A DNA stretch of 50,550 nucleotides from an uncultured Bacillota bacterium (lineage in GTDB: Bacteria; Bacillota; Clostridia; Christensenellales; UBA1242), in contig CASDQU010000074.1 of the NCBI GenBank assembly GCA_949282835.1, forward strand, positions 1 to 50,550, read 5' to 3'. How positions within the stretch are numbered: position 1 is the stretch's first letter; every line of letters starts with the position of its first letter. The notes beneath the pieces are model-generated. The model ran no database searches. It was not told the origin of the DNA and saw only the letters and a program-made list of their open reading frames with translations. Shown here in pieces: positions 27,337 to 34,707 of the stretch. The translations under genes and the position numbers were made by a program.

Positions 27337-27605
27337 ATAATATAAATTATGTGATGTTAAAATTTAAACAAGTTAAATTTTAATTTTGCTAATGCAAAAA
27401 CACAATAAATTGTGTCATCACATAATTTGTATAAACATCAGCCTCACCCTTGCAAGCAAGTTCGGCTTCCGATAATATAAACTTTGGATGTTAAAATTTA
27501 AACAAGTTAAATTTTAATTTTGCTAACGCAAAAAACATAATAAATTGTGTCATCACATAATTTGTATAAACATCAGCCTCACCTTGCAAGCAAGTTCGGC
27601 TTCAA
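27337..27605. repeat. Tandem direct repeat, about 2 copies of a 134-bp unit (117-bp cores at 27353-27469 and 27487-27603)
   Basis: By eye the cores differ by 2 substitutions and 2 single-base indels. Each contains several short hairpins (AAAATTTAA/TTAAATTTT; TTTTGC/GCAAAA; ACACA/TGTGT). Confidence 0.85.
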
Positions 27606-33437: not shown

Positions 33438-33530
33438 CCTTTAGCTCCTTGCCTTCATAATAACATATGGCAGATGGCAAAAAATGACTTATTATGGCAT
33501 AAATTATCTTTTTTTATCTTTTATCTATCA

Positions 33531-33567
33531 ATAAAAAAACTATCAAAAGTATTACTCTTGATAGTTT
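33531..33567 (-). terminator. Rho-independent terminator (distal) downstream of the tRNA operon
   Basis: AAACTATCAA / TTGATAGTTT: perfect 10-bp stem, 11-nt loop, followed on the minus strand by TTTTTTTAT. Confidence 0.6.
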
Positions 33568-33570
33568 CTC

Positions 33571-33613
33571 ATCGTTCACAATCCCCGTCCTATGCACGGA
33601 GATTGTGAACGAT
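33571..33613. repeat. Perfect 13-bp inverted repeat (extendable to about 17 bp), hairpin without a T-tract
   Basis: ATCGTTCACAATC c CCGT cctatgc ACGG a GATTGTGAACGAT. Confidence 0.8.
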
Positions 33614-33647
33614 ATAAAACAACACCGCAGCATGCGGTGTCGTTTTA
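33614..33647. terminator. Terminator (proximal, bidirectional) immediately after tRNA-Tyr
   Basis: ACACCGC-AGCAT-GCGGTGT with TGTTTTAT following on the minus strand and CGTTTTA on the plus strand. Confidence 0.7.
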
Positions 33648-33650
33648 TCA

Positions 33651-33735
33651 TGGTGGGCAGGGATGGATTCGAACCATCGAAGTCGGAGACGACGGATTTA
33701 CAGTCCGTTGCATTTGGCCACTCTGCAACCTACCC
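33651..33735 (-). tRNA. tRNA-Tyr (GTA), class II
   Basis: Reverse complement GGGTAGG...ACGGA CTGTAAA TCCGT...long variable arm...GGTTCGAATCC...CCTGCCC A CCA. Confidence 0.93.
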
Positions 33736-33759
33736 ATATAAAATGCCCTTTCGGGCAAC

Positions 33760-33834
33760 TGGAGCTGGTGATAGGAATCGAACCTACAACCTGCTGATTA
33801 CAAGTCAGCTGCTCTACCATTGAGCCACACCAGC
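33760..33834 (-). tRNA. tRNA-Thr (TGT)
   Basis: Reverse complement GCTGGTG TGGCTCAATGGTAGAGC A GCTGA CTTGTAA TCAGC ... GGTTCGATTCC ... CACCAGC T CCA. Confidence 0.93.
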
Positions 33835-33841
33835 AAATTTT

Positions 33842-33871
33842 TGTCCTAGCAGTAATAAAGCCGCTAGGACA
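33842..33871 (-). other. Spacer hairpin inside the tRNA operon (possible processing element)
   Basis: TGTCCTAGC / GCTAGGACA: perfect 9-bp stem, 12-nt loop. There is no T-run after it on the transcribed (minus) strand. Confidence 0.6.
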
Positions 33872-33898
33872 TTTAGTGCATAAGAATTTTTCTTTTCC

Positions 33899-34057
33899 CC
33901 GCCTTATGTCACTTATGGTAACATGCGGCGCTCTAACCCTCCCTTTCAAGAGATTTGAGCTTCGCTTCCGCCTTATGTCACTTATGGTAACATGCGGCGC
34001 TCTAACCCTCTCTTTCAAGAGATTTGAGCTTCGCTTCCGCCTTATGTCACTTATGGT
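33899..34057 (-). repeat. 69-bp tandem repeat (2.3 copies) abutting and overlapping the 3' end of tRNA-Phe
   Basis: Units start at 33899, 33968 and 34037. The full copies differ at one base (C33942 / T34011). The third, partial copy merges with the ACCA end of tRNA-Phe. Confidence 0.9.
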
Positions 34058-34129
34058 GCCCTAAGGTGGAATCGAACCACCGACACAAGGATTTTCAGTC
34101 CTTTGCTCTGCCGACTGAGCTATCAGGGC
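34054..34129 (-). tRNA. tRNA-Phe (GAA)
   Basis: Reverse complement GCCCTGA TAGCTCAGTCGGCAGAGC A AAGGA CTGAAAA TCCTT ... GGTTCGATTCC ... TAGGGC A CCA. Confidence 0.93.
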
Positions 34130-34154
34130 TTAATATTTGTTAACCCGTAGGTTA

Positions 34155-34231
34155 TGGCGACTCGGATGGGGCTCGAACCCACGACCTCCAGCGTGACAGG
34201 CTGGCGTTCTAACCAACTGAACTACCGAGCC
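34155..34231 (-). tRNA. tRNA-Asp (GTC)
   Basis: Reverse complement GGCTCGG TAGTTCAGTTGGTTAGAAC GCCAGC CTGTCAC GCTGG ... GGTTCGAGCCC ... CCGAGTC G CCA. Confidence 0.93.
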
Positions 34232-34284
34232 ACAAATGTGCTTATTTGTGTTATCTTTCCACTATCGTTGTCACAAATCAATAG

Positions 34285-34361
34285 TGGTGGGCCTTCAGGG
34301 ACTCGAACCCCGGACCGACCGGTTATGAGCCGGTTGCTCTAACCAACTGAGCTAAAGGCCC
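34285..34361 (-). tRNA. tRNA with a CAT anticodon (elongator Met or lysidine-dependent Ile2; not initiator-like)
   Basis: Reverse complement GGGCCTT TAGCTCAGTTGGTTAGAGC ... CTCATAA ... GGTTCGAGTCC ... AAGGCCC A CCA. The 1-72 pair is G-C, so it is not fMet. I cannot decide Met versus Ile2 by eye. Confidence 0.85.
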
Positions 34362-34384
34362 ATTGTACATTCTTGTTTTTAGTA

Positions 34385-34460
34385 TGGTCGGGGTGGAGAG
34401 GCTCGAACTCCCGACCCCATGGTCCCAAACCACGTGCGCTACCAACTGCGCTACACCCCG
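34385..34460 (-). tRNA. tRNA-Pro (TGG)
   Basis: Reverse complement CGGGGTG TAGCGCAGTTGGTAGCGC ... TTTGGGA ... AGTTCGAGCCT ... CACCCCG A CCA. Confidence 0.93.
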
Positions 34461-34480
34461 TAAAACAAGTTTGCAAAGAT

Positions 34481-34509
34481 ATTTTAATATATAAAGAGGC
34501 TATTGTCAA
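34481..34509 (-). promoter_or_regulatory. Sigma-A promoter of the six-tRNA operon
   Basis: Minus strand TTGACA, 17 nt, TAAAAT. The -10 element ends about 20 nt upstream of the tRNA-Pro 5' end. Confidence 0.65.
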
Positions 34510-34707
34510 GAAAAAAACAAAAATTTTTCTAAAAAATCTCTATTAATTTTATATAGATTTTACATACATATATATGTTAATTTTTATCTATTGCTGACTA
34601 TACTCTGCAAATCTCTTATTTGTAATATTTTCAATAATTTTATAATTTTTCTTTACAACGCTTTTGAATACAAAAAAATTATGTTATCATTATTTAAAGA
34701 GGTTTAT

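Follow-up and report, generated by a model that had tools for sequence, protein, structure and literature searches.

Tandem units resembling tRNA-linked repeats behind tRNA-Phe in a gut Clostridia lineage

The repeat array and its tRNA operon

The stretch of DNA analysed here (the window) comprises 50,550 nucleotides of contig CASDQU010000074.1 (assembly GCA_949282835.1) of an uncultured Bacillota bacterium belonging to the Clostridia, and carries a minus-strand operon of six tRNA genes with a repeat array between tRNA-Phe and tRNA-Thr (Pro-Met-Asp-Phe-[array]-Thr-Tyr). As outlined below, this array is near certain to belong to a family that resembles the tRNA-linked repeats (TLRs) of Escherichia coli. 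An initial annotation, which was made from the sequence of the window, had described a 69-bp tandem repeat, fused to the tRNA-Phe 3' end and present in 2.3 copies. Tandem Repeats Finder (TRF) returns the same array at 33899-34057 (period 69, 2.3 copies, 98% matches, score 311), and ARAGORN and Rfam agree on the position of tRNA-Phe, whose encoded ACCA directly abuts unit 1, the next base being the unit start. The proposal that the units end in ACCA and share a 17-nt trailer also holds, since ACCA plus the trailer UAAGUGACAUAAGGCGG occurs three times in the array. The two full units are identical at 68 of 69 positions (98.6%); the sole difference, 34011 (A in the RNA) versus 33942 (G in the RNA), exchanges a U-A for a U-G pair in the apical stem, and pairing is kept, as had been noted.

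The spacer between tRNA-Phe and tRNA-Thr has a total length of 219 nt, with 48 nt between the repeated copies of the tRNA 3' end (hereafter tails), and the array sequence occurs only once in this genome. Neither an internal promoter-like site nor a terminator was found in the spacer and the units. A cmscan of positions 33500-34600 against Rfam at E <= 10, a check suggested by the initial annotation, detected the six tRNAs and weak chance matches, and no known element within the repeat. No integrase adjoins the array, and between the tail copies there is no cargo, only spurious open reading frames (ORFs) running through tRNAs and repeats. A coding function was considered and rejected: the 62-aa plus-strand and the 106-aa minus-strand ORFs run through the repeats and tRNAs, and the period of the units in the relatives (about 65-78 nt) is in most cases not divisible by three. 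The tRNA-Phe(GAA) gene is the only Phe gene among the 33 tRNA genes found in this genome. The number of units is that of one short-read contig of a metagenome-assembled genome (MAG), in which the array could be collapsed.

Anatomy and distribution of the repeat family

Each unit of the family opens with a 5' arm that repeats the tRNA-Phe tail imperfectly and in inverted orientation, followed by a variable linker, a core and a direct copy of the tail. The arm starts 1-5 nt past the CCA, usually with GUG, and the tail copy comprises half of the T-loop, a T-stem strand, the acceptor strand and the ACCA of tRNA-Phe. In most species, the tail copy is identical to the resident tRNA-Phe over 23-25 nt (GGUUCGAUUCCACCUUAGGGCACCA); examples are G015, G087, G105, G110, G127, G134, G153, L082 and L084 (identifiers of this analysis, in which the genome of the window is G000). 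The terminal stem does resemble a tRNA acceptor, as had been proposed for the window, and most of the relatives carry an exact copy of the tRNA-Phe 3' end as the 3' strand. In G000 and its sister G071, unit tail and tRNA tail are identical at 15 of 25 positions, and in the window only the ACCA is exact.

The core, AAAUCUCYUGAAAGRGAGGGUU, is very conserved and mostly has a GNRA-type loop. The majority of units carry GAAA, whereas three species have GCAA and two have GGAA; the non-GNRA exceptions are AAAA (unit 1 of G032) and GAUA (G085). This variety of loops led to the rejection of anticodon mimicry by the GAAA loop. The majority fraction, as a measure of conservation, falls from 0.93 in the core to 0.84 in the tail, 0.69 in the arm and 0.54 in the linker.

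A search with the core pattern identified tRNA-Phe-linked units in 28 of the 154 species of the genus. When the junction of core and T-loop was searched in one genome per species (185,579 species), 15 contigs were obtained, all of this lineage, some of which carry a different tRNA-Phe sequence. A covariance model (R1), which was built from 32 units and whose E-values are rough, scores 53.5 bits on unit 1 (E about 8e-13) and 51.7 bits on unit 2, and uncovered additional copies in two (G259 and G234) of 58 other genera sampled in the family. Homologous units are also present in L078 and L084. At 0-1 mismatch, the core pattern gave no convincing copy behind other tRNAs or outside tRNA-Phe loci, and both core matches in G000 lie within the array. 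The near relative G071 originates from a human gut metagenome, and a metagenome scan for strain-level copy-number variants returned one contig only, which equals the G071 record.

A second spacer element, a long hairpin of the form GUUGCGACAAAUCGCCAACGAAA ... AAAUGGAGUG ... UUUCGUUUGGUCGCAA, is located downstream of the unit in L059 (G131), L060 (G134) and L065 (G154); this GUUGCGACAAAUCGCCAACGAAA-UUUCGUUUGGUCGCAA element is absent from the window.

Predicted folding of the units

When the units are cut from ACCA to ACCA, the minimum free energy (MFE) structure predicted by RNAfold is a rod, with -22.4 kcal/mol (z-score -3.5) for unit 1 and -21.5 kcal/mol (z-score -2.6) for unit 2. It is built from a 7-bp terminal stem (GUGACAU/AUGUUAC), upon which GCGG/CCGC and an apical hairpin follow, and it leaves CA as a 3' overhang. 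The terminal stem and GCGG/CCGC are the same as in the rod that had previously been folded by hand, and only the register of the apex is slightly different. Cut in the phase of TRF, the unit forms two local hairpins (-24.0 kcal/mol), and the similar energies of the two cuts make the rod and the local hairpins near-isoenergetic competitors in the unprocessed array. For the core, two pairing registers fit about equally, and comparative data cannot separate them. Taken in its entirety, the spacer of 219 nt has much more structure than shuffled sequences (z = -7.3).

The third copy had been counted as 0.3 of a unit; however, its arm pairs with CUUAUGCAC around 20 nt downstream, thereby producing an 11-bp stem. 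This terminal minimal unit, which lacks both the core hairpin and the CCA, is part of an 81-nt fold (minimal rod plus the hairpin that precedes tRNA-Thr) with a z-score of -5.9. The stem of the latter hairpin, GUCCUAGC/GCUAGGAC, is also found in G005 and G071.

Co-evolution of the tail with tRNA-Phe and compensation by the arm

Within the genus, tRNA-Phe exists in two variants at the acceptor pair 5:68, U-A and A-U, and the variant of the unit tail corresponds to that of the resident tRNA-Phe in every case examined. The tail follows the tRNA variant in each lineage (UUAGGGC, UUUGGGC, CUCAAGGC, CCCGCGGC), and in other genera, in which the tRNA-Phe tail reads CCGCCUCAAGGCACCA, CCGCCUCGAGGCACCA or CCGCCCCGCGGCACCA, the unit tail is identical to each of them. 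The 5' arm shifts in step with the tail, for instance to GUGACAUAAGG, GUGAACAAAG, GUGCAUUGAGG or GUGGCGCG.

The initial annotation had called for a covariation test, and the pairing of the outer stem indeed proved to be kept by compensatory changes. In a structure-blind MAFFT alignment, 79% of the cells are paired, compared to 38-57% with slid partners, and changes on both sides were observed in 10 of 22 pairs, seven of which are among the 12 outer-stem pairs. The covariation score was reached by none of 500 shuffles, a statistic for which the relatives are not independent samples. In a model-fitted alignment of 41 units, 82% of the cells are paired, and over both alignments slid partners reach only 37-57%. 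Independent of any alignment, the mean energy of cognate arm-tail duplexes is -17.4 kcal/mol versus -13.2 +/- 0.6 kcal/mol for permuted ones (0/20000). The arm also tracks diverged unit tails, with -18.1 versus -14.2 kcal/mol for unit 2 of G032 and -19.0 versus -13.7 kcal/mol for G118. For the core hairpin, no covariation was detectable, as its sequence is too invariant to show any.

In the G000 tail, the changes G69U and G71U convert the two standing A-G mismatches of the family to A-U pairs, with the arm unchanged from that of G005, and GGUGG:CCACC has become GGCGG:CCGC. The tail has drifted away from the tRNA towards perfect pairing with the arm, so that this genome preserves the hairpin and not tRNA mimicry. 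Taken together, the sequences of the family show that the tail is evolving in concert with the resident tRNA-Phe and that the arm compensates.

Copy number among relatives

The closest relative by its flanks, G005, has no unit and only a minimal rod behind tRNA-Phe. One unit is present in G071, which is one base away from the G000 units, and in about 20 further species, 1.5 units are found in G100 and two in G000, G015, G032, G087, G107 and L084. G118 contains two units with a larger module between them. A minimal rod also closes the arrays in G032, G085, G100, G110, G127, G128 and L084; here and in G005, its pairing was read from the sequences. The unit counts of MAGs are lower bounds, since the repeat broke the assembly of G259, of which two contig ends (L082 and L085) both stop inside the tRNA-Phe-linked array.

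Units of the same species are in most cases almost the same in sequence, which suggests that they were duplicated or homogenised recently. A variable copy number had been named beforehand as a sign of a neutral slippage duplication; the number does vary (0, 1, 1.5 or 2), but pairing and core are conserved alongside. The unit itself is old, being conserved across genera, and just the last duplication step is recent.

Nucleases and other tail duplicates in the genome

The genome is a 0.95-Mb MAG with a completeness of 83%. It encodes a type A RNase P RNA (274 bits) together with RNase III and RNase Y. Searches for RNase E/G, RNase Z and RNase PH gave no match above the cut-off in this 83%-complete assembly, whose incompleteness means that their absence is not proven. 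CCA is encoded in all of the 33 tRNA genes found. This set of nucleases and the encoded CCA are consistent with a purely exonucleolytic 3' maturation of tRNAs.

Tail duplication is not confined to tRNA-Phe. Copies of 18 nt of the tail (with up to two mismatches) are located 100-250 nt downstream of the tRNAs for Trp, Leu(CAG), Lys, Leu(UAA), Ile and His, and the Leu(UAA) tail is present in two tandem copies; a copy of the tRNA-Val tail lies 3.6 kb from its gene. Tail-duplicating modules are therefore a genome-wide habit, which concerns at least 7 of the 33 tRNA genes. Each of the copies at 100-250 nt is preceded by a terminator-like hairpin and a 100-150-nt module that opens with an inverted tail or a T-arm-like segment; these modules differ from the tRNA-Phe units and exceed them in size.

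Two of these modules, behind Leu(CAG) on C72 and Leu(UAA) on C103, have a hairpin in common, with the pattern CCCGAAAAAU..GU.A.AUUUUUUGGG. Similar hairpins are part of the modules of about 260 nt behind tRNA-Phe in L054 (G118), L055 (G119) and L017 (G030), each of which ends in a 33-35-nt copy of the tRNA-Phe tail. A hairpin core that is shared behind different tRNAs looks cassette-like.

The coordinates of all features are compiled in Table 1. TRF also reported a 134-bp tandem duplication in an intergenic region of the window (27337-27603; 2.0 copies, 94% matches), which is unrelated to the tRNA repeat.

Table 1. Positions of the tRNA operon, the repeat units and the other tail copies (window coordinates unless a contig of G000 is named)
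Feature	Position	Strand	Remarks
Promoter-like site TTGACA-17-TAAAAT	34481..34509	-	upstream of tRNA-Pro; 11/12 consensus matches
tRNA-Pro	34385-34460	-	first gene of the operon, followed by Met and Asp
tRNA-Phe(GAA), encoded CCA	34054..34129	-	ARAGORN and Rfam, 69.8 bits; last ~25 nt are the copied tail
Unit 1, 69 nt	33985..34053	-	rod register
Unit 1, arm GUGACAUAAGGCGG	34037-34050	-
Unit 1, core	34004-34025	-
Unit 1, diverged tail CCGCAUGUUACCA	33985-33997	-
Unit 2, 69 nt	33916..33984	-	core 33935-33956
Terminal minimal unit	33875..33915	-	arm 33899-33912; decayed tail CUUAUGCAC (~33875-33885)
11-bp hairpin GUCCUAGCGGC/GCUGCUAGGAC	33842..33871	-	just before tRNA-Thr; spacer part, outside the repeat family
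tRNA-Thr(UGU)	33760..33834	-	gene after the array
tRNA-Tyr	33651-33735	-	followed by terminator 33622-33640
Tail-copy sites outside the window	C42:5238-5469, C72:690-909, C87:3048-3305, C103:14182-14511, C118:7227-7482, C120:78-348
tRNA-Val tail copy	C84:8257

Comparison with known systems

The initial annotation did not recognise the array as a known element; its layout, however, is that of the tRNA-linked repeats of E. coli (PMC8144298), as was checked on strain K-12. Knowledge of TLRs in E. coli goes back to 1978 (Egan & Landy 1978; Rudd 1999; both cited in PMC8144298). [quoted passage not shown] No function is known for TLRs except for three members linked to 5S rRNA (PMC8144298). At the tyrT locus of K-12, a 19-nt tail of tRNA-Tyr recurs every 178 nt after tyrV, an inverted tail segment of the units pairs with the tail copy according to RNAfold (GGGGAAGGAU with AUCCUUCCCC), and the 3' end of the annotated RttR RNA falls exactly at the tail copy. 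A search of open-access papers yielded nothing relevant on tail repeats in tRNA operons outside E. coli.

As in the E. coli TLR/RttR system (RF00391), the array of the window lies directly downstream of a tRNA within the same operon; the operon of the window has one promoter-like site and one terminator. The number of tandem units falls within the range of one to five, with two full units and a minimal one in the window and 0-2 in the relatives, and the unit likewise ends in a tail copy with CCA, which pairs with a preceding inverted segment and so closes the module. Unlike the E. coli elements, the units of the window lack a tail identity of 18-19 nt, which is present in the orthologous units of most relatives; since the tails of the relatives are identical over 23-25 nt, the units of the window are diverged members of a family with TLR-type tails. 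There is no sequence homology to RtT (RF00391) and no covariance-model match at E <= 10. In contrast to the K-12 repeats, the unit is 69 nt long instead of 178 nt and has one conserved apical hairpin instead of several hairpins, and its inverted arm begins 3 nt past the CCA and pairs into A73 and C74. The host also differs, as it belongs to a gut Clostridia lineage with genomes of about 1 Mb and without a detected RNase E/G. The RNase E cleavage that was proposed for the tail copies of E. coli can therefore not be the mechanism here.

The RNAs RrA, RrB and RrF, which are encoded downstream of 5S rRNA and bind Hfq and CsrA in vitro (PMC8144298), resemble the units in that their last part duplicates the 3' end of the stable RNA upstream and that they are conserved across genera; they are transcribed and processed from the operon, as is proposed for the units. 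They differ in that they follow 5S rRNA rather than a tRNA, and GGA motifs and the binding of Hfq and CsrA are features of their own. A further fragment of a tRNA spacer that has been cited as functional is 3'ETS-leuZ (PMC8144298).

Proposed origin and processing of the array

The reading favoured here, with a probability of roughly 0.55, is that the array is the Clostridial counterpart of the E. coli tRNA-linked repeats, that is, a co-transcribed spacer module, which is excised by tRNA-processing enzymes and amplified by recombination. Units would be gained and lost through unequal recombination or slippage between the direct repeats formed by tail and trailer, and gene conversion would homogenise the tail copies against the tRNA gene. 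The array would be transcribed together with the tRNAs, and the arm-tail stem would imitate the stacked acceptor and T stems, so that tRNA-processing enzymes excise the module. The module would not need a function of its own and could persist because it is cleanly removed from the transcript of a tRNA that is essential and encoded only once. Given how strongly the core is conserved, it may have an additional function.

Known non-tRNA substrates of RNase P include acceptor/T-stem minihelices and the precursor of 4.5S RNA, and on such substrates the bacterial enzyme responds to a rod-like helix, an NCCA-like 3' overhang, G+1, U-1 and C72. The units resemble these hairpin substrates, as they form a long predicted rod with an NCCA-like 3' overhang, a G at the proposed position +1, U-1 and C72 opposite. 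In the proposed scheme, type A RNase P would split the conserved GUG after its U. The unit would then retain G+1:C72, A73 and CCA, and the single-copy tRNA-Phe would keep a trailer of about 5 nt, which 3' exonucleases could trim. The product of each unit would be a hairpin RNA of about 65 nt with its 3' end at ACCA or close to it, in the same way as RttR ends at its tail copy. The assignment of the nucleases, i.e., an RNase P cut at GU|G with subsequent 3' trimming, is tentative and rather less likely than not, and stands well behind the identification of the family itself. The initial annotation had suggested that the units may be substrates or decoys of RNase P, RNase Z or the CCA-adding enzyme; of these, RNase Z was looked for in this genome and not found.

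Several observations weigh against this reading of the array as an excised spacer module. In the predicted rod, A73 and C74 are paired (GUG:CAC), a further difference from hairpin RNase P substrates, and the remaining CA overhang would make the unit a poorer substrate than a free RCCA end. The ACCA-terminated rod described in the initial annotation holds in the window, but ACCA is not essential to the family: the single units of G089, G093 and G131 lack the CCA, and G089 and G093 nevertheless keep the stem, which means that the family cannot depend on a step that requires CCA. The rod is superior to pairing of the arm with the tRNA tail in only 8 of 19 informative units and is positively favoured only with diverged tails (unit 2 of G032, G085, G118, G166, G171 and G000). 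As the arm is about as complementary to the tail of the tRNA as to that of the unit, part of the apparent covariation could represent pairing with, or descent from, that tail, and the compensation could also stem from templated correction of a quasi-palindrome instead of selection. Nor does a purely passive spacer account for the fact that conservation is highest in the core, across genera with differing tRNA-Phe stems.

Alternative explanations

One alternative is that the hairpin is a functional small RNA, which acts in trans via the core as a recognition site for a protein or RNA and uses the tail stem only for release and stability. It could, for instance, sequester a toxin or an enzyme that binds tRNAs, in the manner of a sponge or decoy, or report the growth rate by being made in step with the tRNA. 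The core is the best-conserved part (0.93) and is retained in at least three genera despite differing arms and tails, and no other copy of it exists in the genome that could serve as a donor for gene conversion. The loops GAAA, GCAA and GGAA are all of the GNRA type, the element is kept in genomes of about 1 Mb with scarce non-coding DNA, and RrA/B/F and 3'ETS-leuZ provide precedents (PMC8144298). However, the unit is missing from around 125 of the 154 species of the genus at the sensitivity used, including the nearest flank relative G005, and is thus dispensable; moreover, 13 of 32 units have a disrupted upper core pair, the loops AAAA and GAUA occur, and covariation of the core is not detectable. 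A trans-acting role is considered unlikely. Rather less weight is given to a broader version, in which the hairpins form a lineage-wide system of abundant structured RNAs that are produced in fixed proportion to particular tRNAs and bind a specific partner with their core, for instance a tRNA-processing or tRNA-modifying enzyme or a toxin directed against tRNAs, which the hairpin would titrate.

Direct repeats of a tRNA 3' end that start in the T-loop are the classic mark of integration at tRNA genes, and the array shares this property with attL/attR sites; it could be what a mobile element that targets tRNA genes left behind, as a scar or a miniature cassette, with the core as a former attachment-site arm, in which case an integrase-type insertion would have duplicated the tRNA-Phe tail and a later deletion left a short remnant. 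The tail duplicates behind at least six other tRNAs and the one 3.6 kb off behind tRNA-Val would fit such a scenario, as would the CCCGAAAAAU...UUUUUGGG hairpin modules behind Leu-CAG and Leu-TAA in this genome and behind Phe in G118 and G119. In attL/attR pairs, however, the flanks would be different and the spacing would be in kilobases, whereas the trailer of the array is repeated with the tail at a spacing of 69 nt, as expected for a tandem duplication. In addition, integration does not predict an inverted tail arm, no integrase adjoins the spacer of only 219 nt, the core-type unit was never seen behind another tRNA, and the core/T-loop junction was matched by none of 2.9 million viral contigs or 50,697 phage records. 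An origin from a mobile element is considered improbable. Slightly less probable still is a decayed tandem tRNA-Phe gene, whose arm would derive from the acceptor 5' strand and whose core from the anticodon arm with its GAA loop. The unit length of 69-74 nt is close to the 76 nt of the tRNA, the tail is identical, and by inspection many species have a GGUGG-loop-CCACC hairpin at the position of the D-arm and the core at that of the anticodon arm; but neither Rfam (E <= 10) nor ARAGORN detects a tRNA within 33899-34053, R1 aligns to tRNA-Phe via the tail only (17.7 bits) with the core deleted against the anticodon arm, the arm pairs two positions out of the acceptor-stem register (with A73 and C74), and the GCAA or GGAA loop of several species is not an anticodon. 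Finally, the copy number differs among close relatives (G005 0, G071 1, G000 2) and the 98.6% identity (68/69) of the copies points to a recent duplication, as would be expected for neutral slippage without structural constraint. For the unit as such, this explanation is contradicted by its age and conservation across genera, the compensatory changes in the outer stem and the conserved core, and it is regarded as very improbable.

Significance

The design of inverted tail, core and direct tail, arranged in tandem behind a tRNA, exists in a phylum distant from that of E. coli without sequence homology to the E. coli elements. Its occurrence in genomes of about 1 Mb, the core conserved across genera and the co-evolution of tail and tRNA argue for a general mechanism that produces or keeps such elements, rather than for an enterobacterial oddity. 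The units provide a small predicted RNA of about 65 nt, which is supported by covariation and would allow a direct test of the processing hypothesis, and a host without detected RNase E or RNase Z offers a setting for the proposed 5' cut by RNase P and exonucleolytic 3' trimming. The repeat is a candidate for a new Rfam family, and a partner-binding system, if true, would be the first function for tRNA-linked repeats.

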